A stretch of DNA of 64,000 nt, taken from the NCBI GenBank assembly GCA_039195135.1, contig JBCCVP010000001.1:33839-97838 (forward strand), read 5' to 3'. The position numbers and the translations under genes are program-made. The DNA comes from Pseudomonadota bacterium (GTDB lineage Bacteria; Pseudomonadota; Gammaproteobacteria; Xanthomonadales; SZUA-38). The notes below the pieces were generated by a model. That model was not told the origin of the DNA. It saw only the letters and a list, made by a program, of their open reading frames with translations, and searched no databases. Positions 1,450-19,940 of this stretch are shown piece after piece (within the stretch, counting starts at the first letter, position 1; the number at the start of each line of letters is the position of its first letter).

Positions 1450-1477
1450 ATTCCTCTCATAATCGGAGCCGCCCCGG

Positions 1478-3060: not shown

Positions 3061-3086
3061 CAAGACCAAGGGCCGGGACGGCGGGC

Positions 3087-3110
3087 CCACCTCACATCGG
3101 TGGTTTTTTT
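3087..3110 (+). terminator. Weak hairpin plus T7 tract between fecR-like gene and receptor gene (possible attenuator/terminator)
   Basis: CCACC (3087-3091) and GGTGG (3099-3103) form a 5-bp stem around a 7-nt loop, followed by TTTTTTT (3104-3110). The stem is short, so this is a weak call. Confidence 0.3.
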
Positions 3111-3202
3111 GTCCTGCAGCGTCCGGGTTTTTGCCGACCGTGCCGTCTGTCCCTGAGGCGGGCAGGTTTTTCGCCCCGCGATCCCTATAAGACGGAGTTG
3201 AT

Positions 3203-5683: not shown

Positions 5684-5775
5684 CTGGGCGGCCCACGCCT
5701 GCTAAGGAACCGCGCGGGTTTTCTCGTCGGGCGGCGTCTGCTGCGCCGCAACCGATTCTTGCCGCCAGGCCGAGA

Positions 5776-6993
5776 TCAGTTTGCCCCGTATTCGGTTTCG
5801 ATCAGAATCTCGTTGTGCAGCGTTTTGTGCACCGGGCAGCGGTCGGCAATTTCCAACAGTCGGGCTCGCTGCGCCTCGGTCAGATCACCTTCGATATGCA
5901 CCACTTTCCGGATGCGGTCCACATAGCCGTCGCTTGATTCGCAGGCCTGGCAGTCCTCCGCGTGGACACGGTCATGCACAAGATCAACGTCGATGCTGTC
6001 CAGCTTGAGCTTCTTGTGGTTGGCGTACATGCGCATCGTCATCGACGTGCAGGTACCCAGAGCCGCCAGCAGATACTCATACGGGTTGGGACCGCGGTTG
6101 TGCCCGCCCACCTGCTCCGGCTCATCGGCAAGCAGCCGGTGAGCCGGCGTTTCCACGACGCGCGTAAACGCCTTGTTGGCCTCGGTGATCCGCACGTGGC
6201 CCGGCGCGACGGCAGCCGGTTCCGCATCGGTGACGGGCTGCGCCAGGTAGCGTCCGGCCCAGGCGGCGATAACCTCCGCGGCGTACTTGGCGTCTTCCCG
6301 GCGGCTCAGCAGATGGTCCGCCCGGTCCAGCGACACAAAACTCTTGGAGTGTCGCGCGGCCGTGTAGATGCGTGATGCTTCGTCGATAGGCACGATGCCG
6401 TCCAGCGGAGAATGCAGCACCAGCAGCGCCTTTTTGAGTTTTGCGATGTGGCTCGTGTCGTTATGCCGGTCGAGATCCTCCAGGAACTGGCGCTGGATCG
6501 TAAACTTCCGGCCGGCCAGTTCCACCTCGACCGCGTCCGCCTCGCGGATCTCCTGCTCTTTTTCGCTCATCAGGTGTTTGACGTGCTCCGCCGTTGCCGG
6601 CGCACCGATCGTGGCCACCGCCCGGACCTTGGGCAAAGCATGGGCCGCCGCAAGCACCGCGGCTCCTCCGAGACTGTGGCCGATCAGCAGCTTCGGCGCC
6701 TGGTACTCCGCGGCCAGAAATTTCGCCGCAGCAAGCAGGTCCTGGACGTTGCCGGAAAAATTGGTGTTGGCAAAGTCGCCGTCGCTGCCGCCAAGGCCGG
6801 TGAAGTCGAAGCGCAGAGTGGCGATGCCTGCCTCCGCCAGGGTGCGCGTAATGCGCGATGCCGCGGTCAGGTCCTTGCCGCAGGTAAAGCAGTGGGCAAA
6901 GAGCGCATACGCCCGCGGCTGGTCGGGCGACTCCAGAAGTCCGGCAAGCTGCTCCCCCTGGCTGTTGGCAAACTCAATTTTCTGTCGCTGCAA
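5776..6993 (-). CDS. Bifunctional alpha/beta-hydrolase / OsmC-family protein
   Basis: The N-terminal hydrolase fold has the nucleophile elbow GHSLGG. The C-terminal OsmC-like domain reads GPNPYEYLLAALGTCTSMTMRMYA...LLEIADRCPVH. Both candidate starts are TTG. I prefer 6993 (LQRQKIEF...) because AGGAGA lies about 6 nt upstream; the ORF-track start is 7020. Confidence 0.8.
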   Translation of the reverse strand: MQRQKIEFANSQGEQLAGLLESPDQPRAYALFAHCFTCGKDLTAASRITRTLAEAGIATLRFDFTGLGGSDGDFANTNFSGNVQDLLAAAKFLAAEYQAPKLLIGHSLGGAAVLAAAHALPKVRAVATIGAPATAEHVKHLMSEKEQEIREADAVEVELAGRKFTIQRQFLEDLDRHNDTSHIAKLKKALLVLHSPLDGIVPIDEASRIYTAARHSKSFVSLDRADHLLSRREDAKYAAEVIAAWAGRYLAQPVTDAEPAAVAPGHVRITEANKAFTRVVETPAHRLLADEPEQVGGHNRGPNPYEYLLAALGTCTSMTMRMYANHKKLKLDSIDVDLVHDRVHAEDCQACESSDGYVDRIRKVVHIEGDLTEAQRARLLEIADRCPVHKTLHNEILIETEYGAN

Positions 6994-7085
6994 GGTCTTT
7001 CTCCTCGATCGGGGCCGCAAAGGCGTCGCGATTGGTGCAAAAAAATCGCACTAGGTAGAAGCACCATGCTAACGGATCGACCGAA

Positions 7086-9515
7086 ATGAAATCCGCACTC
7101 CTGAGCCTGCTGGGCGTTGTTCTTCTCCTTGAAACCGGCGCCGCCGCGGTGCTGGAGGTCACCCGGTCCACCACGCTGGGCGGCAGCGGCAACGACAGCG
7201 TTGCCGGGATGGCGGTGGGGCCCGACGGATCGGTGTATCTCACCGGGACTACCTTGTCCGCAGACTTTGCCGGCAACCTGAGCGCCGTAGGCGAAGATGT
7301 TTTTGTGCTGCGAATGAACCCGGACTCGACCCTGGCCTACGTGCGCCTTCTGAGCGGCAACGGCACCGACAATGCCCTGGCCATTACGGTGGACGGCGCC
7401 GGCAATGCCTACGTACTGGCCCAGACCGACTCGACGGATCTGCCTGCTCCAAATGGATTTCTGACCACACCGCAGGGGGAAACGGATGCGTATGTAGCCC
7501 GTTTCGACGCCAGCGGCAATCAGGTTTACGGCTCCTACTATGGCGGCCCGGATTTTGACGGCCAGTTTGACGGGGGCATTACCTGGGACTCGGACGGACA
7601 GGTCTACATCACCAGCCGCACCGAAGACCCGGCCAGCGGCCTGCCTACCCTCAATGCCTACGAAACGAGCTGTGCGGTGCCGCCCTGTATCCTCCTGGCC
7701 GGCTTTGACACCAATCAAATCGGCGCCGCGTCGCTGATCTACGGCGGCTATGCCGGTGGCAGCGGTGGCGAGGCCGGCTTTGAGATCGACACCGACGCAG
7801 CCGGCAACGTGTACGTGTTTGGCTTCACCGAATCAGCCAGCGACCTGGTCACCGCCGGTCAGGGTTTTCAGGACACGATCGGCAGCATCAATGAGCGGGA
7901 CCACTTCCTGCTGAAGCTGGACCCGGCAGCGAACGGTGCCGCCCAGCTTGTCTACTCCACTTTTATCGGCGGCGATGGCGATGAGGAGGAGGTGGGCGGC
8001 TTTCACGTGGCGGCCAACGGTTCCGTCTGGGTGACCGGCAATACCACCTCGACCAACCTGGCGACGCCGGGCGCGTACCAGACCACCCTGGGTGGCGCCA
8101 CCGACGCCTATCTGATTGCCATCGATACCACCGTTAGCGGGGCCGCCTCCAGGTTGTGGACCACTTATCTCGGCGGCACCGAAGACGAAACCGGCTGGAA
8201 CGTCGCCCGAGCCAACGATGGAACGCTGTGGGTCGGCCTGGTGTCCGCCTCGCCAGGCTTGAGCGAGGTCAGTCCGCTGCCGGCGTTTTTTGACGTGGGC
8301 CCGCCGGCCGGCTTTGACGATGTTGGCTTGCTGGCAAGCTTTTCGCCGGATGGAACCACACTTCAACAGTTAACCCGCTTTGCCCGGGCGGTGCGCTTCC
8401 TGCCGGTGCCCACCCAGTGGGTTTCAGACCAGCTGTTTGTATCGGCGAGCGTGTCCGGCAGCGCCTTTCTAGGCAACGCCGGCCCTGCACAACCGGCGGG
8501 GGCCCGGGACCTGTATACCGGCCGCTTTTCGGTAAGCACCGACCGGGGTCTGACCCTGGACGTGGAGGCAGGATTCGACCAGATACCGGCCGCCGGCAGC
8601 ACCGTGGTCAGCTATGTGATCAGCAACCGCAGCCTCCTCGATCGAACTAATGTGATGCTTAGCGCCGACTTTCCGGCGGGCGCCGCCCCGGACCGGGTGC
8701 CAACCAACTGCAGCTTTCCCAATACGCAGTTCACCTGCACCATCGGGGTACTGCGGGCCGGTGAGCAGCAGGTGATCGATATTCAGGCGACGCAGGTCAG
8801 CGGCGCCGCGCTGACCTTCAGCGCAACCGTTTCGGCAAGCGAAACCGATCCGACGCCACCGGACAATGCCGACAGCGCAACGATCACCATCCAGCCGGGC
8901 CCACCCCTGCCCCAGGCCGAGTTCCGCCTGGCCGGCTTCGACGCGGGGGTAGCCAGCGCGGATACGGGCGAACTGCTGGCCGACAGCCGGTTCGGCATCA
9001 TCGCCGGATCTCAGGGGGTCGATGCGTCAGCGTTGAACCTGCTTCGCCTGGGTGGCGGCAGCGCGCTGCCCGTCCGGAACATCAGCAACGGCGGCCAGGT
9101 GGCTTTTGGCGTGCTGGACGCAGGTCAATGGACCCCCGCCGCCAGCGACACGCTGGATCTAACGCAAACCCTCAACCCGGCCCACCGGGTATTTCTGACG
9201 TTTCGGTTTCCCAGCCAGGTGACGCTGTGGTCGGCAGCTCCATTCACGGCGCCGGTGCAGGTTGAACAAGCCCTTTACGACGCCCTGTCCGGGGAGCCGG
9301 TATTTTTCTCCGTCGATACCGTTGGCAATTCAGCCACGCTGCGGCAGGGCAGCAGAACGCTGATTAGCGCCAACCCCTTTGTTCCGGGCGCCGCGGCGGC
9401 CTCCATGCTGGGCCAGGATCAGGTTGTGAGCAGCGGTTTCGGGTCTGATTTCCTGGGCCGGGCTGTCCTCGGTCCCAGCGAGGCCAGCACCATTTTCGTC
9501 AACGGTTTCGAGTAG
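7086..9515 (+). CDS. Secreted SBBP-type beta-propeller repeat protein with a DUF11/CARDB-like Ig domain and an uncharacterised C-terminal region
   Basis: 809 aa with a signal peptide (LLSLLGVVLLLETGAAA). It has repeated units of the form GG.G.D.A..I.VD..GN.YV.G.T.S.D (for example GGSGNDSVAGMAVGPDGSVYLTGTTLSADF and GNGTDNALAITVDGAGNAYVLAQTDSTDL). The Ig-like segment reads VVSYVISNRS...FTCTIGVLRAGEQQVIDIQA. The protein ends ...STIFVNGFE. Confidence 0.7.
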   Translation: MKSALLSLLGVVLLLETGAAAVLEVTRSTTLGGSGNDSVAGMAVGPDGSVYLTGTTLSADFAGNLSAVGEDVFVLRMNPDSTLAYVRLLSGNGTDNALAITVDGAGNAYVLAQTDSTDLPAPNGFLTTPQGETDAYVARFDASGNQVYGSYYGGPDFDGQFDGGITWDSDGQVYITSRTEDPASGLPTLNAYETSCAVPPCILLAGFDTNQIGAASLIYGGYAGGSGGEAGFEIDTDAAGNVYVFGFTESASDLVTAGQGFQDTIGSINERDHFLLKLDPAANGAAQLVYSTFIGGDGDEEEVGGFHVAANGSVWVTGNTTSTNLATPGAYQTTLGGATDAYLIAIDTTVSGAASRLWTTYLGGTEDETGWNVARANDGTLWVGLVSASPGLSEVSPLPAFFDVGPPAGFDDVGLLASFSPDGTTLQQLTRFARAVRFLPVPTQWVSDQLFVSASVSGSAFLGNAGPAQPAGARDLYTGRFSVSTDRGLTLDVEAGFDQIPAAGSTVVSYVISNRSLLDRTNVMLSADFPAGAAPDRVPTNCSFPNTQFTCTIGVLRAGEQQVIDIQATQVSGAALTFSATVSASETDPTPPDNADSATITIQPGPPLPQAEFRLAGFDAGVASADTGELLADSRFGIIAGSQGVDASALNLLRLGGGSALPVRNISNGGQVAFGVLDAGQWTPAASDTLDLTQTLNPAHRVFLTFRFPSQVTLWSAAPFTAPVQVEQALYDALSGEPVFFSVDTVGNSATLRQGSRTLISANPFVPGAAAASMLGQDQVVSSGFGSDFLGRAVLGPSEASTIFVNGFE

Positions 9516-9574
9516 CAGAGGAACATCGCCGCTGCCAAAACGGTTATTCTGCGCCGTGCGTACTGGGAGGTTGC

Positions 9575-11071
9575 ATGCGGCTTGTAGGGTACTTTGGCAC
9601 TGCGTGCCTGGCTCTGGCCATGGTTAGCAGTTCCTTAGCGGCCGACACAGAAAAGGGTCTGCCCGGCGTTGCTGTGGTGATTGAGGGCATACCTGCCAGC
9701 GCGGCGGACGAGCAGGCCACGGTGGCCGTTGGCATCACCAATCTCGGCCAGGAAACGGGTAACTTCACGCTTTTAAGCACCCTCACGTCAAGCAGTATCG
9801 CCAGCGGCTCGATCCCGACCAGCGTGGCTCTGGAGAGTCGTCAGACGCAGCAGTACTTTCTGGATATCACAGTCCTGGAATCCGGCGAAACCGCTGCCAT
9901 CGAGGTGGGTGCGGAGGACATGGCAGACCCCGCGAACGCTGATCTAACGGCGTTTTTGTTGCTCGACGATGAGCTGTTCAGCTCAGGTTTTGAACCCGGC
10001 GAGATGGCAGATCCGGGCACCCCGCCGGAGCCAATCTTCGTCACCCGAGCCGGCGACCGAGGGGGAGATGTGGTCAGCGACCCGGTGGGCATTTCCTGCG
10101 GCGCCAACTGTGCGGAATTTGTGGGCTCCGGGACGACGGTGATGCTATCCGCGGAAGCCTTCGATGAATCGAAATTCACGGGCTGGGACGGCGCTTGCAC
10201 CGGTTCCGCCGACTGCATCGTGATCGTGGAGGGACCCACGGAGGTCATCGCAAATTTTGAACCGGACCCAAACGTCGCCATAACGCTGATCGTTAACCCG
10301 GCGGTGGTTGCTCCGGAAGACGCCGTGGCCGTCAGCTGGTCTCTCGAAAATTACGTGGACGGCGAGACGAGCTGCACGACCGAGGGCCCCCTCTTCTGGG
10401 GATTGGACTTTAACCAGAGCCCCAGCGGCGGAGCCGGAAGCTATCCTATTGAGGAGACAACTACCTTCGTCATCGACTGCGGCGAGGTGGTGGCCTCAGC
10501 GACGGTAACCGTCGACCCCGGCCTACTGGACCGTTTCCCTCCGCCACCAGAATTCTGCGGGCCCCGGCCTGCAGGTCAGGCCATACCGTTTGCGTTCCGT
10601 TTTCCGCTTGAGCTGGAAGACAGGTCGGGCGGGAACTACGAAGACGTGTGGGGTGTATGGCCAAGCCCCCTGACCAATGAAGCCCTGATCACCATTCCCC
10701 GGGGGGAGTACATCGCCTTGCCGTTTTACGCCGATCTTGAGCTTGGCCGCTTCTGGCAACTCCGCTGGCTCGGCGGTCCCCGGGGCGCGAACCAAACGCA
10801 GGTGAGTATCAGCCGTTGCCCGGGCGACTTTACCGGCCTCGGCGGCATCGGCTACTCCGATCCGCTGTGCAACCGGATATCGGGCAGTGAGGGCGGAACC
10901 ATCCTGGCCCTGACGGATGAAAACGGGGATGGCGGCAACCTGGCCTGCCCCATCCTGCCCGGGGGCAACGAGATCTATTACCTGAACGTTCGTCACACCA
11001 ATGCCGTCGGCGCCAACGAGTGTGCCCGGGCCGAATGTGTTTTCCTGGCCGATCCTCGGCTGCTCAACTAG
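9575..11071 (+). CDS. Secreted multidomain protein of unknown function, tandem paralogue A (CARDB-like Ig domain, LFSSGFEP linker, InlB-B-repeat-like Cys domain, Ig-like domain, Cys-containing C-terminal domain)
   Basis: 498 aa with GGGAGG 6 nt before the ATG and a signal peptide (ACLALAMVSSSLAA). The CARDB-like segment is ATVAVGITNLGQETGNF. The InlB-B-repeat-like pattern is GDVVSDPVGISCGANCAEF...FTGWDGACTGSADCIVIVEGPTEVIANFE. The C-terminal block is RFWQLRWLGGPRG...SRCPGDF...GYSDPLCN...YYLNVRHTNAVGANECARAECVFLADPRLLN. No enzymatic motif was recognised. Confidence 0.7.
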   Translation: MRLVGYFGTACLALAMVSSSLAADTEKGLPGVAVVIEGIPASAADEQATVAVGITNLGQETGNFTLLSTLTSSSIASGSIPTSVALESRQTQQYFLDITVLESGETAAIEVGAEDMADPANADLTAFLLLDDELFSSGFEPGEMADPGTPPEPIFVTRAGDRGGDVVSDPVGISCGANCAEFVGSGTTVMLSAEAFDESKFTGWDGACTGSADCIVIVEGPTEVIANFEPDPNVAITLIVNPAVVAPEDAVAVSWSLENYVDGETSCTTEGPLFWGLDFNQSPSGGAGSYPIEETTTFVIDCGEVVASATVTVDPGLLDRFPPPPEFCGPRPAGQAIPFAFRFPLELEDRSGGNYEDVWGVWPSPLTNEALITIPRGEYIALPFYADLELGRFWQLRWLGGPRGANQTQVSISRCPGDFTGLGGIGYSDPLCNRISGSEGGTILALTDENGDGGNLACPILPGGNEIYYLNVRHTNAVGANECARAECVFLADPRLLN

Positions 11072-11075
11072 GACC

Positions 11076-11189
11076 GGTCTATTTCCCGGTGCCGAAGAGA
11101 CTTATTATGTAAACGTTCGGCACGCCAACGCCGACGACGCTAACGAGTGTGCCCGGGGCAGCTGTGTCTTCTTTGTTGAACTTCGGTTG
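11076..11189 (+). pseudogene. Relic of the last ~37 codons of a third paralogue copy, lying between paralogues A and B
   Basis: This stretch translates as GLFPGAEETYYVNVRHANADDANECARGSCVFFVELRL. The C-terminus of paralogue A is ILPGGNEIYYLNVRHTNAVGANECARAECVFLADPRL, identical at about 22 of 37 positions by hand alignment. DNA similarity is also visible. There is no upstream coding body, and the relic is in a different frame from gene A. Confidence 0.6.
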
Positions 11190-11228
11190 CCTGACCAGGA
11201 TCAGAAGGTTTGCTACCCAGGAGATTGC

Positions 11229-12713
11229 ATGCGGTTTGCAGTAAACATTGGCATTGTGTGGCTGACGCTGGCCAGCATCGGCGATTCCTTCGCGGCCGAT
11301 ACAGCAAAAGGCTCAGGCCAAACCGGTGTCGCTGTCGTCATTGAAGGCATCCCGGCCGTGGCTACCGGCGAAGCGGCCACGATTGCCGTCGGCGTCACTA
11401 ATTTCGGGCCGGACTCTCGCGATATCGCGCTTTCCGGCACCCTCGTATCGAGCAGCATCGCCAGCGGCTCGCTACCGGCCAGTGTCCTTCTGGAAGCGGG
11501 ACAAACCGAGCAGTATTTCCTCGATATTACGGTCCTGGCGTCGGATGACATCCCCACGGTTGAGGTTCGCGCGGAAGATATGGCGAACACCGCAATCTTT
11601 GATCTTGCCGAATACAGCTTACTGACGAATGAGCTGTTCAACTCAGGTTTTGAGCCGAGCGAGGCGGCCGCTCCACCACAGGTGATCTTCGTTACCCGAA
11701 GCGGTAACCGCCGGGGCACGGTCAGCAGCGATCCAGCGGGCATTTCCTGCGGCGCCAACTGCGCAGAATTTGTCGATCCGGGCTCAATGATCCAGCTATC
11801 CGCCGAACCGTTTCTCGGTGCGCAGTTTGCTGGTTGGAGTGGCCCCTGCTCCGGGCTCGACGACTGCTCGTTTGTCGTCGAGGAGCCCACGGAGATTTTT
11901 GCGGAGTTTGAAGTTGTTCCGCCCATCGAGGTAACGCTGAGCGCCAGCCCCATAATGATTGCTCCGGGGCGGCCCACGGAGATCAGCTGGACCGTCGAAA
12001 ACTATGTGGTGGGTGAGGACTCCTGCACGACCCGGGGCCCCAGCTCCTTTGGAGAGGAGTTTCAGCAGAACATTGCGGCAGGATCCGTAATCTATCGACT
12101 GCTTGACCCATTCACCTTCTCCCTCGACTGCGGGGAGGATGCCGCGTCGGTCACGGTCACCGTGACCCCGGATGGATTCCCGGCGCCGCCGGCTTTTTGC
12201 GAACCGGAACCGGCCGGACGTTTGCTGCCTTTTGAGTTCACCTATCCGCTTGAGTTTACGCCGCGGACAGCGTTCAACTACGCGGAGATATGGGGGCCCT
12301 GGCCAGAACCCCAGGCCAACGAAGCCATTATCCGGGTTCCCCGTCTGAACTATATTTCCATGCCGTTTTACGCCAATGCCGAAAACGGCCGGTTCTGGCA
12401 GATCCGCTGGCTCGGCGGCCCCCGAAGCGCCGATTCCACCCAGGTGACCGTCAGCCGCTGCCCGGGCGACTTTGACGGCAACGACGGCATGGGCTACTCC
12501 GACCCGTTGTGCAACCAGGTCTCCGGCAGCGAGGGCGGCGTCATCCTGGTGGTGACCGACGAGAATGAGGATGGTGGCGACCTGGCCTGTCCGGTCCTGC
12601 CCGGCGCCGACGAGCTTTACTACCTGAACGTGCGCCATACCGACGCCGAGGGCGAGAACCAGTGCAACGAATTCCGATGTAATTTCTTCGCTGACCCCCG
12701 GCTGCTCAACTAG
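11229..12713 (+). CDS. Secreted multidomain protein of unknown function, tandem paralogue B
   Basis: I chose the ATG at 11229 (MRFAVNIGIVWLTLASIGDSFAADTAKG...). It has AGGAGA upstream, and its start context GGAGATTGCATGCGG mirrors GGAGGTTGCATGCGG of paralogue A. The protein is collinear with paralogue A over the whole length (for example GISCGANCAEF, RFWQIRWLGGPRS, SRCPGDFDG, YYLNVRHTDAEGENQCNEFRCNFFADPRLLN). I estimate roughly half or more of the residues are identical by eye. Confidence 0.7.
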   Translation: MRFAVNIGIVWLTLASIGDSFAADTAKGSGQTGVAVVIEGIPAVATGEAATIAVGVTNFGPDSRDIALSGTLVSSSIASGSLPASVLLEAGQTEQYFLDITVLASDDIPTVEVRAEDMANTAIFDLAEYSLLTNELFNSGFEPSEAAAPPQVIFVTRSGNRRGTVSSDPAGISCGANCAEFVDPGSMIQLSAEPFLGAQFAGWSGPCSGLDDCSFVVEEPTEIFAEFEVVPPIEVTLSASPIMIAPGRPTEISWTVENYVVGEDSCTTRGPSSFGEEFQQNIAAGSVIYRLLDPFTFSLDCGEDAASVTVTVTPDGFPAPPAFCEPEPAGRLLPFEFTYPLEFTPRTAFNYAEIWGPWPEPQANEAIIRVPRLNYISMPFYANAENGRFWQIRWLGGPRSADSTQVTVSRCPGDFDGNDGMGYSDPLCNQVSGSEGGVILVVTDENEDGGDLACPVLPGADELYYLNVRHTDAEGENQCNEFRCNFFADPRLLN

Positions 12714-12730
12714 GGCACAACGAGGCTCGC

Positions 12731-13957
12731 TCAGCCGATCCCGTCCCGCTCGACGGGACAGCTCATGCACCGCGGACCTCCCCGGCCCCGGCCCAGTTCC
12801 TCGCCGGCGATGGTGATGACTTCAATACCGGCTTCGCGCATCGCCGCAATCGTCTCCCCGTTGCGCTCGTAGCCGATCACGGTGCCGGGCTTCAGCGTGA
12901 GCACGTTGTTGGCGTCATTCCACTGTTCGCGCTCCGCGGCATACTTGTCCCCGCCGGTGGGGATAATGCGCAGCTTAGATTGACCGCAGGCGCTCGCCAG
13001 CGACGCAAAAAAATCAGATCGCTGCGTAACCACCAGCCCGCCGCCGGTGCCGGGCGTGATATCCCAGGAGGGTGTGTCCTTATTGATGATGCGCGGGTAA
13101 ACGCTGAAGCAGTCCACATCCATCTGGGTCATCACCGTGTCCAGGTGCATGCAGCTGCGGTGTTTTGGCAGGTCCACAGCAACAACCCGGTCCGCGACGC
13201 CGCCGGCAAACAGCCGTTCGGCCAGCATCTCCACCGCCTGCGGCGTGGTGCGCTCGCTGATTCCGGCAAGCACCGTGCCGTTACCCAGCACCAGCACATC
13301 GCCCCCCTCCAGCGAAGCGTCGGTGCGCCCCATTTCCACGCCGTCGAACCAGACGCCCCAGCGGGAGGTGCGGAAGATCGGATGGTGCCGGTAGACAGCT
13401 TTCAGGTGCACCGTTTCCCGCAGCCGGGCCGCCTTCGCCATGGGATTCAGCGACACGCCGCTGTAGATCCAGCATGACGTGTCGCGGGTAAACAGGTGGT
13501 TCGGCAGCGGCGGCAGAATGAAGTCTGTATCGCCGACGATCAGCTCCGCGGTGAGACTCTGCGGCGGGTCAACGAGGTCGTCCTGCGTAAGACCGCCGAT
13601 CAGGGCCGAAGCCATGGCTTCTCCATCCATCGCTTCCAGGTAGTCGCGCACCGAACGCGCCAGGCCCGGCCCCAGGGATGTTTCCGGCACCTGATGGTCG
13701 AGCACCCAGCGCCGCGCCTCTTCCACCTCCAGCGTTTCTGCCAGCAGCTGGTGCAGCAGCAGCACCTCCACGCCGTTGTCCTCAAGGGCTTTTACAAAAA
13801 GATCGTGCTCGCTGCCGGCGCGTTTAACCCGCACCACGTCGTCAAACAGCAGATCCTCGAAGTTGCGCGGCGTAAGCCGCGTCAGGCTGAACTCCGGCCG
13901 GTGCAGCAGCACCCGCCGAAGCGTTCCAACTTCCGATCCCACGTAAACTCTGGCCAT
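12731..13957 (-). CDS. arcA: Arginine deiminase
   Basis: Start taken at the ATG at 13957 (MARVYVGSEVGTLRRVLLHRPEFSLTRLTP...), with GAAAGGG upstream. Typical ADI blocks are present throughout. The C-terminal catalytic-Cys region is GRGRGGPRCMSCPVERD. Confidence 0.85.
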   Translation of the reverse strand: MARVYVGSEVGTLRRVLLHRPEFSLTRLTPRNFEDLLFDDVVRVKRAGSEHDLFVKALEDNGVEVLLLHQLLAETLEVEEARRWVLDHQVPETSLGPGLARSVRDYLEAMDGEAMASALIGGLTQDDLVDPPQSLTAELIVGDTDFILPPLPNHLFTRDTSCWIYSGVSLNPMAKAARLRETVHLKAVYRHHPIFRTSRWGVWFDGVEMGRTDASLEGGDVLVLGNGTVLAGISERTTPQAVEMLAERLFAGGVADRVVAVDLPKHRSCMHLDTVMTQMDVDCFSVYPRIINKDTPSWDITPGTGGGLVVTQRSDFFASLASACGQSKLRIIPTGGDKYAAEREQWNDANNVLTLKPGTVIGYERNGETIAAMREAGIEVITIAGEELGRGRGGPRCMSCPVERDGIG

Positions 13958-14054
13958 CACCCTTTCCCAGTGGTCGTGCCCGGCTGATCCGGGAGGGTGC
14001 ACACGATACCCACTGCGGTGACGTGAAGCGAGGGGTGGAAACGGATTTTAACGG

Positions 14055-15173
14055 CTAGCCGTTGCGGATAATGACCTTACCCAGGTGAGATGAGCGCTCC
14101 AGATACTCAAAAGCGCTGACAGCGTCCTCGAAGGCAAACTCTCTCGCCACCGCTCCTTCGATATTGCCAGCGTCCAGCGCCCGGAGCAGCTCCTCCATCA
14201 TCACCCGGCTGCCATTGCTGATCGCCTTCATGGTGATGTTCTTGATGTAGAAGTTGGGCATGGAAAGGATCTTGCTGGGCCTCGGCCCGGTGCCGATCAT
14301 GACGACCATCGCGTTGACGGCGGCCGCCTCCAGCGATTGATCCAGCGTCGGCCAGCCAACGTTCTCCAGCACAATGTTGGCGCCCTCCCCGCCGGTGAGT
14401 TCGCTCACCGCTTTGCCCCATTCCGGCGTATTGCGGTAGTTCACCGTCAGGTCGACGCCAAACTCGCTTTTCATTCGGGCCAGCTTGTCATCACTGGAGG
14501 AGGTGACCACCACCCGGGCGCCGGCCGCCTTGGCAAGCTTGACACCCCAGCTGGAAACGCCGCCGGTGCCGAGGGAGAGCACGGTATCGCCCGCCTTCAC
14601 GCTGGCGACGTGATAAAGCGCCTGCCAGGCCGTCAGCGCAGACCCGGAAAGCGTGGCCGCTGTTGCGTCGCTGATGCCGTCCGGCACCTTAACCAGTCCG
14701 CTTTGCGGTAGCGTAGCGACTTCCGTGAGCCAGCCGTCGATGGTGTTGCCCACGTCGGCAACGTAGTGGGCGGGGGTCCAGGGCCCGGAGGTCCAGCGCG
14801 GAAAATGAATGCTGGTCACCCGGTCTCCCGGCGCCACGCGCTCAACGCCTTCCCCCACGGCCATCACCGTGCCCACGCCTTCGCTCAGCGGAACGCGCTC
14901 CGGCAGCTTGTCCTCAAGAAACCAGCCGCGGGCAATCGCCCGGTCGCGACCCGCGAGGCCGCTGGCGTGGACCTTGATCTGCACTTCGCCGGGCTGCGGC
15001 GCGGTGCGCGGCCGGGTAGCCAGCCGCATCGTGTCGAACGGGCCCTTCGGCCCCACTTCCCAGGCCCGATAGGACCCGACGGCCAGCGCCTCCGGGTCCT
15101 GTGCGCTGGCCTGCCCCGCTGCAGCAAGCCCGGCCATGGCGGCCGAGCTGCTGATGAAGTGTCGCCGTTTCAT
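14055..15173 (-). CDS. MDR-superfamily (quinone oxidoreductase / zinc-type alcohol dehydrogenase-like) protein with a twin-arginine signal peptide
   Basis: The N-terminus is MKRRHFISSSAAMAGLAAAGQASAQ (RRxF Tat motif plus A-x-A site). The GroES-like N-domain contains GEVQIKVHASGL. The Rossmann motif is GDTVLSLGTGGVSSWGVKLAKAAGARVVVTSSS. The gene lies 18 bp downstream of the TonB receptor gene on the same strand. Confidence 0.75.
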   Translation of the reverse strand: MKRRHFISSSAAMAGLAAAGQASAQDPEALAVGSYRAWEVGPKGPFDTMRLATRPRTAPQPGEVQIKVHASGLAGRDRAIARGWFLEDKLPERVPLSEGVGTVMAVGEGVERVAPGDRVTSIHFPRWTSGPWTPAHYVADVGNTIDGWLTEVATLPQSGLVKVPDGISDATAATLSGSALTAWQALYHVASVKAGDTVLSLGTGGVSSWGVKLAKAAGARVVVTSSSDDKLARMKSEFGVDLTVNYRNTPEWGKAVSELTGGEGANIVLENVGWPTLDQSLEAAAVNAMVVMIGTGPRPSKILSMPNFYIKNITMKAISNGSRVMMEELLRALDAGNIEGAVAREFAFEDAVSAFEYLERSSHLGKVIIRNG

Positions 15174-15191
15174 CGATCCAGCCAGGCCGGA

Positions 15192-17552
15192 TCAGAAGCG
15201 GTAGGTGGCCGTCAGGCCGTAGGTGCGCAGTTCCCCCAGGGCCGCCACGTAGGCGTTGGAGAACCCGAGGAACAGCGAGTTGGACACGTAGCGCTCATTG
15301 CTGAGGTTGCGGGCCCAGAGGGACACGTCCCAGTTGTCGCTGGTCACCCCAAGGCGGGTGTTCAGGAGCTGCCGCGAGGGTACCCAACCGGCGTTGAGCA
15401 GACTTAGGAACTGGCGCGACTGATAGGTCAGATCCGCGCGTGCATAGTAGTCCCAGCCGGTGTTGGTTAGCGGTGCGGTCCACTGGGCTCCCAGGGTGCT
15501 CTGCAACTTGGGTGTGCGGCTCACGGCATTGCCGCCGATATCACCGTTTGCGTTGCAGACTACGTCATCACACCAGCCGTCGTTGGCTGCTTCGATAAAG
15601 ATCGTGCCGCCGTCGAACTTGGGATCGTTGTAGGAAAAGCCGTAGTTCAGCGTCAAATTCTCCGTCGCCTGATAGATCCCGTCGATCTCGATACCCCAGG
15701 TGCTGGCACCCCCGACGTTGTCGATAACCACAGGGTCATTGGCGGCGCCGCCGATAGCCGAGGTGTTGATCTGCAGATCAGACCAGTCGATATAGAACAG
15801 CGCTACGTTGGTCACCAGGCTGCCGTCCAGGAATCGGTTTTTGGTGCCCACCTCAAAGGTCCAGTTGCTCTCCTCATCGTAGGTGGCCTGGGAAGCATCA
15901 ATCGGGTTGCCGGAACCGCCCAGAATTGGGCTGTTAAATCCGCCCGCCTTCGTGCCCTGGGCAATCGACAGGTAAAGCAGGTTTTCATCCGTAAGGGCAT
16001 AGTCCAGGGTGACCCGGGGCGTGAAAATGTTAAAGGTGTCCGACGCAGCGGTGTTGGGCACGCCAATCGTTTCCACGGCTTTGTCTTCCTGCGAGTAGCG
16101 GGCCTCGGCGCTCAGCTTCAGGCGCCCGTCCATCAGGTTGAAGCCAACCCGGCCAAACACGGCGGTGGTTTCATCGGCGAAGAAATCCGGGTTTTCGTCC
16201 ACGTTCGGGAGGGACGGCAGCGAATCGGTACCCAGGGGGAACAAGAAGTAACCGATGGCCTCGTAAAGATCTTCCGAGTCGTAATAGAACAGTCCGAAGT
16301 TGGCCTCGATCAGGCCGCCGGAATCATAGTCGAAGCGCACCTCGTGGGAATCCGACTCCAGACCGCCGTTCGGCTGCGAATCAAAAATCACAAAACCCGG
16401 AAAGAAGTTGAGCAGCGAGTTGGGATTGCCCGACCCGTTGATAGCGTCGGGGATCGCCTGTCCACCGGACCGCAGCCGCGAGTCAGCGTTGCCGTAAAGG
16501 TAGGTGAGGTTCCAATCGTCGTTGATTGCCCACTCCACGCGGAACGTGGTGACCTCGTTGCGGCCGCTCTGGCCGAAGGAGCGCGGGTCGAGAATCAGCG
16601 AGTCGCCGTCCGCCGATGCCGTCGCCGGCAGCTCCGTGGAAAACTCGCCGCAGAGCAGTGCGTTGTTCGCCCCGAGGAATGGCAGACCAGGCTGGAAGGT
16701 CGGGGAGCAGTTCAGCGAGTTTTCTGCTGCGAAGCCAAAAAACGACACACCGTCCCGGCCCATGCGCGTGAAAATCGGCTGCGCTTCCTGCTCGATATTG
16801 GTGCGGTAGTAGCCCAGCTCTACCTTGATGTCTTCGGTGGGCAACCACGTGAGGTTGGCCGCGATGGTATCGTTGTCAAATCCGCCGAGGTTACCGTCGC
16901 TGCCCGGGCTAATGCCCTGGTTGGCCAGCGGGTGGGCATTTTGCCAGGTGCCGTCGTATTCCTGCTGGCCGTAGGTAATGCGGCCCAGGAGTTTGTCTTC
17001 GATGATGGGACCGGAGATGGTGGCGCGGCCGGTGAAGAAATCTTCCGAGCCAGCACCGATTTCGATGTTGCCTTCAAATTCTTCCGTGGGCTTTTGCGTC
17101 ACGTAGTTGATGGCGCCGGCGAAGGAGTTCTGACCGTAGAGCGCCGACTGGGGGCCTTTCACCACCTCGATGCGATCCAGGGCAACCATACCCGTATCGA
17201 TCATGTAGCTGCGTTGCAGGTAGACCCCATCGAGGAACGTGGCAACGTTCTGCACCGGGTTGCTCAGGCGAACCTGAGTCTGGCCGCGAATCACCGGCGC
17301 CTCGAGGGCTCCGGAGAACTCTTCAAAAGCGAGCCCGGGCGTGTAGGCAGCCACATCTTCAAGATTCTGGATGCCGCGCCGCGCCAGATCAGAGGCGCTG
17401 AAGGCGGTGACCGAAATGGGAACGTCCTGCAGGTTTTCTTCAACCCGGCGAGCCGTCACGGTGATTTCTTCCAGCTGTGCCAACACCGGTTCGACGGTGA
17501 AGCAAAATGCTAAAGCGGCAACAGCAAGCGGCTTTTTCCTCAGTAATGTCAT
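15192..17552 (-). CDS. TonB-dependent outer-membrane receptor
   Basis: 786 aa with AAGGAG upstream. Signal peptide and plug read AQLEEITVTARRVEENLQDVPISVTAFS...IEVVKGPQSALYGQNSFAGAINYVT. The C-terminus is ...YGLTATYRF. Confidence 0.9.
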   Translation of the reverse strand: MTLLRKKPLAVAALAFCFTVEPVLAQLEEITVTARRVEENLQDVPISVTAFSASDLARRGIQNLEDVAAYTPGLAFEEFSGALEAPVIRGQTQVRLSNPVQNVATFLDGVYLQRSYMIDTGMVALDRIEVVKGPQSALYGQNSFAGAINYVTQKPTEEFEGNIEIGAGSEDFFTGRATISGPIIEDKLLGRITYGQQEYDGTWQNAHPLANQGISPGSDGNLGGFDNDTIAANLTWLPTEDIKVELGYYRTNIEQEAQPIFTRMGRDGVSFFGFAAENSLNCSPTFQPGLPFLGANNALLCGEFSTELPATASADGDSLILDPRSFGQSGRNEVTTFRVEWAINDDWNLTYLYGNADSRLRSGGQAIPDAINGSGNPNSLLNFFPGFVIFDSQPNGGLESDSHEVRFDYDSGGLIEANFGLFYYDSEDLYEAIGYFLFPLGTDSLPSLPNVDENPDFFADETTAVFGRVGFNLMDGRLKLSAEARYSQEDKAVETIGVPNTAASDTFNIFTPRVTLDYALTDENLLYLSIAQGTKAGGFNSPILGGSGNPIDASQATYDEESNWTFEVGTKNRFLDGSLVTNVALFYIDWSDLQINTSAIGGAANDPVVIDNVGGASTWGIEIDGIYQATENLTLNYGFSYNDPKFDGGTIFIEAANDGWCDDVVCNANGDIGGNAVSRTPKLQSTLGAQWTAPLTNTGWDYYARADLTYQSRQFLSLLNAGWVPSRQLLNTRLGVTSDNWDVSLWARNLSNERYVSNSLFLGFSNAYVAALGELRTYGLTATYRF

Positions 17553-17915
17553 CGGTCAGACTCCTTGGTTATGGCGGCGATGGAATAGCTCGCCCCCTAT
17601 CGAGCCCGAAAGTTAGACAATCAGCAACATCTTTTTCATATACCAGCTATCCACGTTTTTGCTTGGTCCAAACGGTCCGCCAAATTTGATGAAATTTTCA
17701 CATAATCTGCCGGATCTTGGGCCCGCTGCCGTGCGTCAATCCGGCGCTGCTGGAAACCCGGAAATAGTGACCGCAGGTTGCCCGGCTTAGTACGCTCCAA
17801 ACACGCCGAATCGCTGACGAACCAAGGCGTCGAACAACCCACCGGCCTGGTCGCTGCCAATCGGGCCGGGTAGAAAACCAGGCTCACAGGCTTTTTTTCC
17901 CTTTGAGTTCCGTTT

Positions 17916-18464
17916 ATGTTTGCGCCCATGCATATCATCGTCGCTGTCCTGACCAGTCTTGTGACAGCTCTTTGGATTCTGCACCGCCTGGCCGAGATGG
18001 GAGTAGATCTGGGGGGCCTTAATCCCTGGCTTTGGCGTCGCCGTCGCCGGTGGAAGCAGAAATACGAGGCGAATCCTGTTTTTGCCCTCGAGCGCCCGAT
18101 GGAGGCTTCGGCTCTGCTGATTACCGCAGTGGCAAAGAGCGAAGGCGATATGACATCGGACGAGCGGCAGCTGGTTCTCAAGCTGTTCGAGGACGAGTTC
18201 CATCTCTCCGATCGGGATGCCGCCGGGCTACTCTCCTCCAGCGTTTTTCTGCTGCGGGACGGTACCGACGTGCGCGCCAATCTGGAAGCGGTGCTGGAAC
18301 CCAGCATCGACCGCTTCACCGCCGACCAGGCTTCCTCCGCGGTCACGCTAATGAAGCGGGTAGCGTCAGCCTCCGGCGAAGCCGGGCCACATCAGACGGA
18401 CCTGGTGCAAAGCGTTGAGGCCCTTTTTGACAGGAAATTCCGACCAAGAGGCAAGTGGGAATAA
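17916..18464 (+). CDS. Membrane-anchored TerB-like (DjlA N-terminal-like) domain protein
   Basis: 182 aa with an N-terminal TM helix (HIIVAVLTSLVTALWIL). The TerB-like pattern is ALLITAVAKSEGDMTSDERQLVLKLFEDEFHLSDRDAAGLL. The family call comes from motif memory only. Confidence 0.45.
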   Translation: MFAPMHIIVAVLTSLVTALWILHRLAEMGVDLGGLNPWLWRRRRRWKQKYEANPVFALERPMEASALLITAVAKSEGDMTSDERQLVLKLFEDEFHLSDRDAAGLLSSSVFLLRDGTDVRANLEAVLEPSIDRFTADQASSAVTLMKRVASASGEAGPHQTDLVQSVEALFDRKFRPRGKWE

Positions 18465-19054
18465 CCGACCCAGCGTAGCCTGGCGAACCGTCTGCGCTCC
18501 GAGCCGATCGGCCCGCGCTTCAGAAAGCGAACGGTTGCCGCAACCAGGTTTTGGACGCTCGCCGACGAATCCAGCTCAATGACAGGACAGGTCATCCTAA
18601 GCAACCATTGCCGGTGAAGGTGCAGGCTGCGCAGCGGGGCCCGACCTTTCTCGTACAGTTTGGCCCAGCGCATAAAGTCCAGGTGCTGCCGACGCATGTC
18701 ACCGCCGGGCTGAATTCGGTCGCCGTAGCGCTGCTGTTCCCGATCCCGCAGCCGACGCAGGCGCTGCGTCCCATCCAACCGCAGGAATACCAGATGGGTG
18801 AATTGATCAAGCAGCGGGTCACCCCAACTGCAAAGCGATCCCGACAGCACCCAGCTTTCCAGGCCGTGGGTTTTGGCCTGGATCGCCCGCACGCGCTCGG
18901 CGGGCTCGACCTTGTCAGTAAATGGCGGGTCGGTGTGGACCCAGTAGAAATGATCCGTATCGAGATGCGGACACCGGAGTTCCGCGGCCAGCGCCGCCCC
19001 CAGGGTCGTTACGCCGGAGCCGGAGGCGCCGAAGACGTGAATCCGGGCCTGCAT
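18392..19054 (-). CDS. P-loop NTPase, adenylate-kinase/FlaR-like small kinase
   Basis: The Walker A motif is IHVFGASGSGVTTLGAALA, followed by HLDTDHFYW. The last ~40 residues are Arg-rich and low-complexity, and they overlap the convergent gene by 73 nt. Confidence 0.6.
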   Translation of the reverse strand: MQARIHVFGASGSGVTTLGAALAAELRCPHLDTDHFYWVHTDPPFTDKVEPAERVRAIQAKTHGLESWVLSGSLCSWGDPLLDQFTHLVFLRLDGTQRLRRLRDREQQRYGDRIQPGGDMRRQHLDFMRWAKLYEKGRAPLRSLHLHRQWLLRMTCPVIELDSSASVQNLVAATVRFLKRGPIGSERRRFARLRWVGYSHLPLGRNFLSKRASTLCTRSV

Positions 19055-19077
19055 CCTGTTCAGTCCCGGATCGCAGC

Positions 19078-19527: not shown

Positions 19528-19614
19528 TAGCTCCCCTCCGAGCAGAGTGGCGATGCCGATGGTAGCACCAGAAGCGGTGCGCAGTTATTCCCCGAGTGCG
19601 ACGGCTGCACCCGG

Positions 19615-19866: not shown

Positions 19867-19940
19867 GGAAGCGTTCAGTCTGACGCAAATCTGACGTGAT
19901 AGGAAAACCTCGGCGAGGGTTTGACGCCGCCAGTGGGTCG

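Follow-up and report, generated by a model that had tools for sequence, protein, structure and literature searches.

A tandem pair of putatively exported modular proteins with a previously uncatalogued, cysteine-rich C-terminal domain

Two neighbouring genes of similar length and identical domain order raise the question of what kind of protein they encode and which role their common C-terminal domain plays. Both lie in the window, the whole stretch of 64,000 nucleotides that was analysed here.

Results and Discussion

Organization and origin of the gene pair

The pair consists of two open reading frames on the forward strand, gene 1 at positions 9575–11071 (protein p1, 498 aa plus stop) and gene 2 at 11229–12713 (p2, 494 aa plus stop). 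Gene 1 is also present in a 99.83%-identical contig, and gene 2 corresponds to the near-identical public protein P0004. Both proteins are collinear and share 57% identity over the full length (BLASTP E = 0), a resemblance that, judged from the alignment, is far beyond chance and confirms the original prediction of two paralogues of about 495 aa. The mechanical open reading frame of gene 2 spans 11001–12713 and includes the ATG at 11229, which is almost certainly the real start because a duplicated start context sits there (GGAGGTTGCATGCGG at 9566 and GGAGATTGCATGCGG at 11220). This context comprises the Shine-Dalgarno-like motifs GGAGG (9566–9570, forward strand), located 4 nt 5' of the gene 1 ATG, and GGAGA (11220–11224, forward strand) upstream of gene 2. 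Both motifs belong to the direct repeat D3 (9566–9657 and 11220–11311), which with a length of 92 nt and 75% identity bears out the earlier claim of a duplicated ribosome-binding context. The same gene 2 start is called on the 99.8%-identical contig of P0004.

The 157-nt spacer between the genes preserves the remnant of a third copy, covering its final ~37 codons. This relic (LFPGAEETYYVNVRHANADDANECARGSCVFFVELRLPDQ, 11079–11200, forward strand), overlooked in the original prediction, was recognized by tblastn, by the DNA repeat D2 (73% and 71% identical) and by translation, and is 59% identical to residues 460–496 of p1 (tblastn E = 4e-10). The relic has lost its stop codon and shares the reading frame of gene 2, which explains why the mechanical open reading frame already begins at 11001. 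As part of the explanation favoured below, and with the same moderate confidence, the pair would have arisen by an old tandem duplication that gave rise to at least three copies, one of which decayed.

Domain layout

Each protein starts with a Sec-type signal peptide, read from the sequence (p1, residues 1–22, positions 9575–9640; p2, 11229–11294; all features on the forward strand). A basic n-region, a hydrophobic core and a small-x-small site with cleavage at SLA↓AD in p1 and SFA↓AD in p2 suggest that both proteins are exported via Sec. The subsequent N-terminal head (p1, residues 23–132, 9641–9970; p2, 11295–11630) yielded neither a Pfam match at E ≤ 1 nor an NCBIfam match, and its alignment with the DUF11 domain of the neighbouring gene product was not significant (hhalign E = 0.065). 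Moreover, the AlphaFold2 model reaches a pLDDT of only ~30 over residues 1–149, and no test supported the CARDB-like nature that had been ascribed to the head. A linker follows, ELFSSGFEP in p1 (residues 133–141, 9971–9997) and ELFNSGFEP in p2 (11631–11657); the LFxxGFE motif also precedes the same downstream cassette in P0069, P0114 and L013.

The cassette opens with a four-Cys module resembling the InlB B-repeat (p1, residues 152–230, 10028–10264, PF18998 E = 7.7e-5; p2, 11679–11915). With 23.0 and 21.7 bits, p1 and p2 score just below the gathering score of 23.6, whereas the homologue P0069 clears it at 40.2 bits, which upholds the earlier assignment. In an exhaustive library search p1 matched more than 16,000 proteins, nearly all via residues ~154–230, and AlphaFold2 models strands in this region with a pLDDT of ~53–84. 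Next comes a two-Cys Ig-like domain (p1, residues 235–313, 10277–10513; p2, 11925–12161), modeled as β-strands with a pLDDT of ~75–90, which in gammaproteobacterial relatives is always located N-terminal of the C-terminal domain. The latter, a predicted six-Cys β-sandwich (p1, residues 319–498, 10529–11068; p2, 12171–12710), completes the chain with the pattern SRCPGDF ... YYLNVRH ... C-x4-C. Each mature protein contains 12 Cys (four in the B-repeat, two in the Ig-like domain and six in the C-terminal domain), every one of which is conserved between the copies; their even number, like the signal peptides, fits exported proteins. Thus, the shared layout that had been proposed holds for the signal peptide, the LFxSGFEP linker, the four-Cys module, the Ig-like domain and the C-terminal domain, but not for a CARDB-like head.

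The C-terminal domain

The motifs RFWQ(L/I)RWLGGPR, SRCPGDF, GYSDPLCN, TDEN.DGG.LACP, YYLNVRH and ADPRLLN, quoted in the original prediction, are found in both copies. Across the family the signature is [ST][RQ]CPGDFD ... YY[FL]N ... C-x4-7-C. In the family alignment A3 invariance or near-invariance is confined to the six Cys, to PGDF and YYxN and to a small number of aromatic or Gly positions; none of the invariant positions carries His, Ser, Glu or Lys. None of 20 members has a Pfam match in this domain, and searches of NCBIfam and of PDB sequences returned no match and no significant match, respectively. The AlphaFold2 model of the domain (180 aa) is all-β, with a pLDDT of 85 and a pTM of 0.85. 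Its best Foldseek matches are carbohydrate-binding modules (CBM61, CBM4, CBM6 and a xanthanase CBM), phage tail-fibre-like proteins and the receptor-binding domains of the toxins C-CPE, iota Ib and CDTb, and the full model matches the PKD+CBM44 entry 2c26 with E = 1.6e-5. However, TM-scores do not exceed 0.46 throughout and 0.40 against the PDB, so that these matches are weak and generic and the fold class specifies no ligand. Since neither HMM nor structure searches pointed to a known family, the domain stands as unassigned, and on sequence grounds it is a previously uncatalogued family, real but sparse. The suggestion of a binding protein or adhesin agrees with the sole fold resemblance, to CBM-like and receptor-binding β-sandwiches, albeit at weak scores.

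Selection and strain variation

Both genes are under purifying selection and the Ig-like domain alone is relaxed: dN/dS between p1 and p2 is 0.33 over the whole length, with values of 0.16 for the head, 0.28 for the C-terminal domain and, as the maximum, 0.81 for the Ig-like domain. The 99.83%-identical strain retains both genes as well as the relic. Among the 19 SNP sites that separate the two strains, 11 fall into the pair (binomial p = 0.004), and non-synonymous changes account for 9 of these 11 compared with 2 of 7 in neighbouring genes (Fisher p = 0.049, based on the same 19 sites). Four SNPs cluster at residues 67–82 of the gene 1 head, which holds five of the seven non-synonymous differences of p1 (L67S, S73G, S74R, T82A and D131N). 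The proposed diversification of the pair is partly borne out: between strains the genes are rich in mostly non-synonymous SNPs, and between the paralogues selection is purifying overall.

Distribution of the family

About 60 relatives were found in Lysobacterales and other gammaproteobacterial MAGs and in JGI/ENA metagenome contigs, including lipoprotein forms from ENA/JGI/NCBI assemblies. Profile searches returned homologues of ~200–320 aa as well as 13 genome loci, one of them in a Kofleriaceae MAG, and 33 metagenome loci; viral contigs lacked the domain. The typical member, referred to as the archetype, has ~350 aa and consists of the Ig-like and the C-terminal domain. The complete head-to-tail architecture of the pair was seen in this species only, as expected from the predicted lineage specificity, but the cassette of B-repeat, Ig-like and C-terminal domain occurs under other heads in Lysobacterales MAGs, and the C-terminal domain alone reaches other Gammaproteobacteria, the Kofleriaceae MAG and lipoproteins. 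The head of P0114/L007 contains the zincin motif HEIGHALGFD (Pfam Peptidase_M10 E = 0.091) and a VWA-like region; that of P0069/L008, placed on the same cassette as in the pair, can be read as VWA-like. The MAGs encoding these proteins also encode the short archetype, and L008 and the archetype from the same MAG are sisters (64% identity).

In relatives, the archetype gene is embedded in a locus with the order GspH..M, XpsN, GspD, a 131-aa lipoprotein, a secreted protein of ~540 aa (termed Y), archetype, PPIase, Wzm, Wzt, GT2 and methyltransferase. This order is kept in 9 of the 13 genome loci, and adjacent genes of the same locus were seen in at least 19 of the 33 metagenome loci. Y is acidic, has a nearly invariant N-terminus and matches no family or structure. 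Within the locus the archetype has diverged most, as expected for an exposed protein, and GspD and the XpsN-like protein are better conserved. Lipoprotein versions occur in contexts without T2SS genes, so that a link between domain and T2SS does not hold everywhere. The window contains no T2SS genes, and the pair is situated outside the conserved locus of its relatives. This T2SS/polysaccharide link in relatives had escaped the original prediction.

Proposed function and alternatives

With moderate confidence, we regard p1 and p2 as exported, probably T2SS-secreted modular proteins that carry a fast-changing head on a conserved C-terminal cassette for binding or anchoring. Following export through the Sec pathway, to which the N-terminal signal points, six disulfides would form in the periplasm, as the 12 conserved Cys suggest. 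The T2SS might then release the protein across the outer membrane, a step suggested solely by relatives, in which a T2SS locus harbours the gene of the typical family member. The Ig-like domain and the β-sandwich would form a module that binds or anchors without catalysing a reaction and that positions the variable head, and the head presumably provides the specific function. Several features suggest such a role: the fold class resembles that of CBMs, none of the invariant residues is of a catalytic type, the module occupies the C-terminus beneath heads unrelated to one another, and genes of the family are linked to the Wzm/Wzt polysaccharide genes. The ligand would most probably be a glycan, either a surface polysaccharide of the cell itself or an environmental polymer.

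The genes surrounding the pair allow another reading, unlikely but by a narrow margin the most probable of the alternatives. As predicted, the pair is preceded by a gene for a secreted β-propeller protein (7086–9515, forward strand, 809 aa), with a signal peptide, an SBBP β-propeller (Pfam E = 2.9e-9; partial LipL53-type SBBP match in NCBIfam), DUF11 (Pfam E = 3e-9) and an unassigned C-terminal region ending ...IFVNGFE. A gap of 59 nt separates it from the pair, with which it may share a transcript. Elsewhere in the window there are genes for an MFS sugar transporter, for GH94 and GH3 and for several TonB-dependent receptors. Together with the fold class, this context would fit free secreted or periplasmic proteins that bind an environmental polysaccharide or other polymer unrelated to the cell's own surface and capture substrate for the genome's numerous TonB-dependent receptors and glycoside hydrolases. 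However, the transcription unit includes neither a glycoside hydrolase nor a TonB-dependent receptor, the sequence of the domain matches none of the CBM families, and the SBBP gene, which is not homologous to the pair, is not conserved beside the pair's relatives.

The locus of the relatives invites a second, likewise doubtful alternative, in which the cassette anchors proteins to the cell surface as part of a dedicated surface-layer system made up of T2SS and polysaccharide. By binding the cell's own ABC-transporter-exported O-polysaccharide or Y, it would tether the archetype and its head-bearing paralogues, including the pair, as a functional analogue of SLH domains or of the way in which the Aeromonas A-layer is tethered through the O-antigen. 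The gene order conserved in many loci, the CBM-like fold, the acidic, secreted Y with its almost invariant N-terminus and the occurrence of the cassette under unrelated heads in genomes that also carry the archetype are consistent with this, as is a comparable cluster in Aeromonas salmonicida (PMC4483657). On the other hand, Y, the putative layer protein, matches no family or structure, the locus is known from relatives rather than from the window genome itself, lipoprotein homologues would find such an anchor superfluous, and the adjacency to wzm/wzt could reflect inherited gene order without functional coupling.

Alternatively, the cassette might act as a recognition domain of a specialised T2SS, a shared folded module that selects the archetype and its head-bearing paralogues for outer-membrane translocation. 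The placement of the archetype gene directly after gspD, seen in more than 25 independent loci, the PPIase chaperone gene next in the locus and the fusion of the cassette C-terminal to at least three unrelated heads would agree with targeting. We nevertheless consider it improbable, since some lipoproteins carry the domain with no T2SS encoded next to them and the archetype diverges fastest, contrary to a conserved docking interface; T2SS substrates are not known to share a common targeting domain.

A toxin-like effector, as originally suggested, or an inhibitor is highly improbable. In this reading the C-terminal β-sandwich would either bind a receptor on another organism, in the style of C-CPE and iota Ib, or inhibit a periplasmic enzyme, in the style of PliG. 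Non-synonymous strain differences and low-scoring Foldseek hits (TM-scores 0.27–0.40, E-values >1e-3) to PliG, C-CPE, Cry protoxin domains and the receptor-binding domains of iota Ib/CDTb are outweighed by the lack of any pore-forming, enzymatic or toxin domain in the pair, of invariant catalytic-type residues, of an immunity gene, secretion partner or dedicated delivery system nearby, and of the domain in viral contigs.

Comparison with known systems

As regards the favoured binding or anchoring cassette, residues 152–230 of both proteins align to the divergent InlB B-repeat model PF18998 (Flg_new_2), as they do to thousands of repeat proteins bearing this module. The pair, scoring just below the Pfam threshold, differs in having one copy per protein compared with 6–38 matched stretches in the top repeat-protein matches, and the B-repeat is distinct from the C-terminal domain in question. 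With the pre-peptidase C-terminal domain PF04151 and the T9SS Por_Secre_tail, that domain shares the form of a β-sandwich at the extreme C-terminus under unrelated N-terminal parts. It is, however, about twice as large and Cys-rich and has no HMM match to either in Pfam or NCBIfam, and unlike Por_Secre_tail proteins its carriers here are Gammaproteobacteria linked to the T2SS rather than the T9SS.

In Aeromonas salmonicida, the A-layer cluster comprises a dedicated Sps T2SS, hypothetical genes and vapA, inserted into an O-antigen cluster of the ABC-2 type between its wzm and wzt genes (PMC4483657). Similarly, the relatives encode the domain protein between a T2SS operon and wzm/wzt, along with another secreted protein of ~50–60 kDa. 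The systems are likened here by gene arrangement alone, no surface layer having been observed in any carrier; in the relatives, wzm and wzt are adjacent and both downstream and a PPIase gene is present, and the pair in the window lies outside any such locus.

The best structural matches are CBM-type sandwiches following PKD or Ig domains, such as PKD-CBM44 of Clostridium thermocellum Cel9D-Cel44A (2c26), besides CBM4, CBM6 and CBM61. In contrast to these, the domain of the pair is larger (~180 aa), matches no CBM Pfam model, reaches TM-scores of 0.3–0.4 and has six conserved Cys, which probably form three disulfides, and an RCPGDF/YYxN signature, neither of which is known from those CBM families. 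Common to both are the all-β sandwich behind an Ig-like domain within a secreted modular protein, and the conservation of aromatic and Asp/Asn positions instead of catalytic residues.

Two tandem genes and the relic of a third

Gene 1 (positions 9575–11071, + strand, an ORF of 498 codons) and gene 2 (11229–12713, + strand, 494 codons) encode the proteins p1 and p2, which can be aligned over their full length with 57% collinear identity and three short gaps (BLASTP E = 0). Nei-Gojobori analysis of p1 against p2 gives a dS of about 1 and a dN/dS of 0.33 over the whole, with regional values of 0.16 for the head, 0.26 for the B-repeat, 0.81 for the Ig domain and 0.28 for the C-terminal domain. Therefore, both genes are old and functional, and the tandem paralogue pair of the original prediction is real and was mostly described rightly.

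The start context of gene 1, GGAGGTTGCATGCGG at 9566, and that of gene 2, GGAGATTGCATGCGG at 11220, are both part of a 92-nt direct repeat with 75% identity. Mechanical ORF calling extends gene 2 to 11001–12713. A start at 11001, giving 570 amino acids, was rejected, since it lies within gene 1 in another frame and leaves the signal peptide 76 residues deep; in addition, the extension represents the relic described below and the start context is duplicated at 11220–11231. A 494-residue product is also called for gene 2 on a public contig of 99.83% identity. A scan for promoters and terminators yielded nothing useful on the + strand.

Situated in the 157-nt spacer between the two genes is the relic of the last approximately 37 codons of a third paralogue (11079–11200, + strand), encoding LFPGAEETYYVNVRHANADDANECARGSCVFFVELRLPDQ. 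By tblastn it aligns with the C-terminal 37 residues of the gene 1 product at 59% identity (E = 4e-10), and at the DNA level it belongs to a 116-nt repeat present in three copies (73% and 71% identity). The relic has lost its stop codon and is in frame with gene 2, which is why the mechanical ORF is inflated to 570 residues. The simplest history would comprise at least three tandem copies, the middle one of which was lost to deletion except for its 3' end. The original prediction overlooked this relic; otherwise its description is correct, apart from the label of the head domain.

Both proteins start with Sec-type signals, which read MRLVGYFGTACLALAMVSSSLA and MRFAVNIGIVWLTLASIGDSFA, each followed by AD, and display a basic n-region, a hydrophobic core and an A-x-A-like site with cleavage at SLA/AD and SFA/AD, respectively. 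Judged from these features, p1 and p2 appear to carry the N-terminal Sec (or Tat) signal of a type II secretion substrate. The mature proteins contain an even number of cysteines, exactly 12 each, all at aligned positions.

Comparison with a contig of a close strain (L017, Logan SRR22824306), which is 99.83% identical to window positions 9590–20726 (about 11 kb), revealed that both genes and the relic are kept. The pair makes up 27% of the aligned length and harbors 11 of the 19 differences (binomial p = 0.004). Non-synonymous changes account for nine of the 11, compared to two of seven in the remaining genes (Fisher p = 0.049), and four of them (L67S, S73G, S74R and T82A) fall within 16 residues (67–82) of the gene 1 head, at window positions 9774–9818. 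Small in number, these 19 differences from one strain are consistent with a conserved cassette carrying a head that is exposed and changes fast.

Modular architecture of the encoded proteins

In an AlphaFold2 model of full-length p1, residues 150–498 fold confidently into β-structure, comprising a B-repeat (152–230), an Ig domain (235–313) and the C-terminal domain (320–498), and residues 1–149 have a pLDDT of about 30. At residues ~180–231, p1 and p2 score 23.0 and 21.7 bits, respectively, against PF18998 (Flg_new_2, a divergent InlB B-repeat), for which the gathering threshold is 23.6. In the homologue P0069 the corresponding module reaches 40.2 bits, and exhaustive phmmer with p1 matched 16,863 proteins, nearly all of them giant repeat proteins, via residues 154–230. 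Although p1 and p2 themselves stay just below the threshold and are thus borderline members, these matches make InlB B-repeat appear a sound sequence-based label for residues ~152–230. Beyond this module, searches of Pfam and NCBIfam returned no match in either protein.

The head had been described as CARDB-like, an assignment that finds no backing: no Pfam family matches at E ≤ 1, CARDB (PF07705) and DUF11 (PF01345) included, the similarity to the DUF11 domain of the upstream protein is weak (BLASTP E = 0.07; hhalign E = 0.065), and the model is unconfident in this region.

The LFxxGFE motif, which forms the linkers at 9971–9997 and 11631–11657, recurs in front of the cassette in P0069 and P0114, directly after the signal peptide in L013, and at the end of the upstream SBBP protein (...IFVNGFE, 9495–9512).

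The C-terminal domain

The C-terminal 180 residues of p1 define a genuine domain family that has a clear signature and lies outside Pfam-A, NCBIfam and the sequences of the PDB. None of the Pfam families matches this part of p1, and across 20 members of the domain family solely two single-member matches were obtained in Pfam (E = 0.27 and 0.39). NCBIfam gave no match for the domain; among PDB sequences, a search with the domain alone returned nothing significant, and the best match of a 20-sequence profile was NPC2 over 24 residues (E = 0.026). The possibility of a divergent pre-peptidase C-terminal domain was dropped, as no HMM bears it out: neither PF04151 nor Por_Secre_tail is matched by p1, p2 or the 20 members in Pfam or NCBIfam.

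A word-index search with the last 185 residues of p1 found no homologue, not even the paralogue p2. In the exhaustive search with p1 at full length, matches to the B-repeat predominated, and only three among the 150 matches listed cover the C-terminus: P0004 (near-identical to p2), P0069 (645 residues) and P0114 (747 residues). A four-sequence profile (A1) gave merely two weak matches; the first query to open the family was the six-sequence profile A2, which retrieved 17 distant homologues of about 160–320 residues. Among them are lipoproteins, in which a lipobox precedes a long acidic linker, proteins composed of signal peptide, Ig domain and C-terminal domain, and proteins in which a proline-rich linker connects the signal peptide to the domain.

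The resulting alignment contains 20 sequences, 19–30% identical to p1. Invariant or nearly so are six cysteines, the sequence P-G-D-F after the second cysteine, Y-Y-x-N and a few prolines, glycines and aromatic residues. Across the alignment there is no invariant histidine, serine, glutamate or lysine, which speaks against catalysis and in favor of a domain with a structural or binding role. Three disulfides are predicted for the domain; C328 and C415 (p1 numbering) are missing together in P0168, which suggests that these two may form one of them.

AlphaFold2 with the family alignment predicts an all-β domain (pLDDT 85, pTM 0.85). A Foldseek search of the PDB with the domain alone returned nothing at E ≤ 1e-3. 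The best of the weaker matches (TM 0.27–0.40) comprise CBM-like folds, namely a xanthanase CBM, CBM61, CBM4, CBM6 and Cry protoxin domains. The others are GOLD, PliG and three receptor-binding domains, those of C-CPE, iota Ib and CDTb. For the CBMs, superposition of the domain alone gives Foldseek probabilities of 0.9–1.0 at TM-scores of 0.3–0.4 and E > 1e-3. In BFVD, the domain resembles phage tail-fibre-like proteins (TM ≤ 0.46). The top match of the full-length model is the PKD+CBM44 tandem 2c26 (E = 1.6e-5), which has in common with p1 the layout of an Ig domain followed by a sandwich. From these matches to CBM-like and other β-sandwich folds, weak as they are, the fold class looks familiar; the family is not. 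According to the model, this appears to be a new family within a known kind of domain, namely the β-sandwich modules of secreted modular proteins.

Distribution and domain architectures

When one genome of each GTDB species was scanned, 13 loci were identified, distributed over MAGs of Lysobacterales and of unclassified Gammaproteobacteria, one MAG each of Xanthomonadaceae and Kofleriaceae, and the cultivable Marinicella marina S1101 (locus L011). No locus is more than 49% identical, from which it can be concluded that the window's own genome is absent from the scanned collection. Metagenome contigs from JGI and ENA added 33 further loci with 26–34% identity. Neither p1 nor p2 was retrieved by an exact-sequence look-up. 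The domain was not found in a scan of viral contigs and the DNA of the pair gave no match in a plasmid search, so that a phage or plasmid origin was dismissed.

The commonest family member is a short form of about 300–400 residues: behind the signal peptide, a short N-terminal segment leads into one or two two-Cys Ig domains, and the C-terminal domain comes last. P0114 (locus L007), P0069 (locus L008), p1 and p2 share an LFxDG(F/L)E linker and, behind it, the cassette of B-repeat, Ig domain and C-terminal domain, topped by differing heads. We read the head of P0069 as VWA-like from its sequence; that of P0114 contains a zincin motif, HEIGHALGFD (Pfam Peptidase_M10 at merely E = 0.091), and a region likewise read as VWA-like. 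The MAGs that encode these two proteins also contain short-form members. A neighbor-joining tree built on the Ig and C-terminal region places both within the short forms; the L008 protein groups as sister with the short form that its own MAG encodes (64% identity), and p1 and p2 form the sister clade. The common cassette, the differing heads and the tree therefore identify the cassette as the constant and the head as the variable part of these proteins.

The distant members P0151–P0161 (e.g. L015, 8001–8813) are lipoproteins with no T2SS genes around them. Here a lipobox is followed by a 60–100-residue acidic linker rich in Asp, Glu, Pro and Gly, which sometimes contains (EPDTG)n repeats, and then by the domain.

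The locus of the short form

In nine of the 13 genome loci, the short form is encoded in one conserved same-strand locus, which in L001 (239–19368) runs from T2SS genes through Wzm/Wzt to sugar genes. It starts with pseudopilins (N_methyl, GspJ, GspK), a GspL/PilN-like protein, GspM, an XpsN/GspC-like protein and the secretin GspD. These are followed by a 131-residue lipoprotein in a pilotin-like position, the secreted protein Y, the short form (Z) and a 523-residue PPIase. The last part consists of Wzm and Wzt, which form an ABC-2 polysaccharide exporter, a GT2 enzyme, a methyltransferase, further glycosyltransferases and an epimerase. With tblastn, neighboring genes from this locus were detected at no fewer than 19 of the 33 metagenome loci. 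The entire run from GspL to GT2 is present in L030 and L047; L032 and L040 extend from GspL to contig ends at Wzt and Wzm, respectively.

Y (L001, 7666–9282, + strand; L011, 7578–8993; L012, 7536–9344) is an acidic secreted protein of about 540 residues (~470–600) with four cysteines, for which no match was found in Pfam, NCBIfam, the PDB or by structure; the conserved neighbors X, Y and Z are without Pfam or NCBIfam matches altogether. The signal peptide and N-terminus of Y are almost invariant (MKRNTLT.AVLAG...ANA, then VNLNPDGLGEVLIYPYYTV), and elsewhere the relatives are 31–47% identical.

Genomic surroundings of the pair

Directly upstream of the pair lies the gene of a secreted SBBP β-propeller and DUF11 protein (7086–9515, + strand), preceded by genes for FecR (+), an STN-type TonB-dependent receptor (+) and an abhydrolase-OsmC fusion (−). 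From the other side, an arginine deiminase gene is convergent on the pair. A conserved SBBP-p1-p2 operon was considered as a feature of the family and discarded, because the window neighbors (the SBBP protein, arginine deiminase and TonB-dependent receptors) show no synteny with the relatives' loci. Neither T2SS genes nor tRNA genes are found within the 64-kb window.

Farther off are genes for TonB-dependent receptors, GH94, GH3 and an MFS sugar transporter together with tryptophan-halogenase-like and PrnB-like genes, and the host looks, from this gene content, like a glycan-using gammaproteobacterium. A glycan-utilisation-type set at 32370–36093 (−) and 42215–47924 (+) comprises a GH94 phosphorylase-like protein, an MFS_2 sugar transporter, a 1003-residue TonB-dependent receptor and a GH3 enzyme whose C-terminal domain is galactose-binding-like. 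Another large DUF11 protein, of 1167 residues (24025–27528, + strand), may belong to the same secreted multidomain class as the SBBP/DUF11 gene product. Two further genes, 16 kb apart (19941–21149 and 37592–39334, both on the − strand), are a full-length PrnB-like gene of the monodechloroaminopyrrolnitrin synthase family (E = 3e-177) and a gene of the tryptophan-halogenase family (E = 3e-182); they are not arranged in a pyrrolnitrin-type operon.

Functional implications

Taken as a general reading, secretion by a T2SS combined with a non-catalytic binding or anchoring cassette, which is probably directed at glycans, has about an even chance of being correct. As to the ligand, an environmental polymer and the cell's own surface polysaccharide or layer are candidates that are each unlikely, to about the same degree. 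A function of the cassette in recognition by the T2SS seems distinctly improbable. A toxin or inhibitor, to which the weak fold echoes are the sole pointer, is very improbable.

The genomic association of the cassette with T2SS and Wzm-Wzt genes in the relatives is interesting and testable. It concerns Lysobacterales-related Gammaproteobacteria, which are known mostly as MAGs and metagenome contigs. In these organisms the cassette could, as a doubtful proposal, be the dedicated handle of a specialised T2SS/surface-polysaccharide system, either as a folded cargo signal or as a tether to O-polysaccharide or a surface layer. If so, whatever carries it, be it the pair or the P0069 and P0114 heads, would be routed to the cell surface and displayed there.

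Substrate recognition by the T2SS and surface retention of secreted proteins are little understood, and a cassette acting as cargo handle or surface anchor would provide a tractable, sequence-recognisable module for both questions. If the cassette is merely glycan-binding, it would represent a new CBM-like family and improve the annotation of several dozen hypothetical proteins. The pair alone would be two more secreted proteins; its added value lies in the new family, the cassette under unrelated heads and the conserved T2SS/chaperone/Wzm-Wzt locus.

A literature search yielded nothing specific on the domain or the relatives' locus, the sole lead being an analogy with Aeromonas. An S-layer-type arrangement of T2SS genes, one or more secreted genes and wzm/wzt is found in L001–L006, L009, L011, L012, L030, L032, L040 and L047, and is not found around the window's own pair. 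Should the cassette act as a handle, Proteobacteria would possess in it an equivalent to SLH domains or to the T9SS C-terminal domain. In Aeromonas salmonicida, the A-layer gene vapA lies, together with hypothetical genes and a dedicated T2SS, between wzm and wzt of an ABC-2 O-antigen cluster (PMC4483657). The relatives' combination of T2SS, secreted genes and wzm/wzt resembles this A-layer/O-antigen cluster in gene arrangement.
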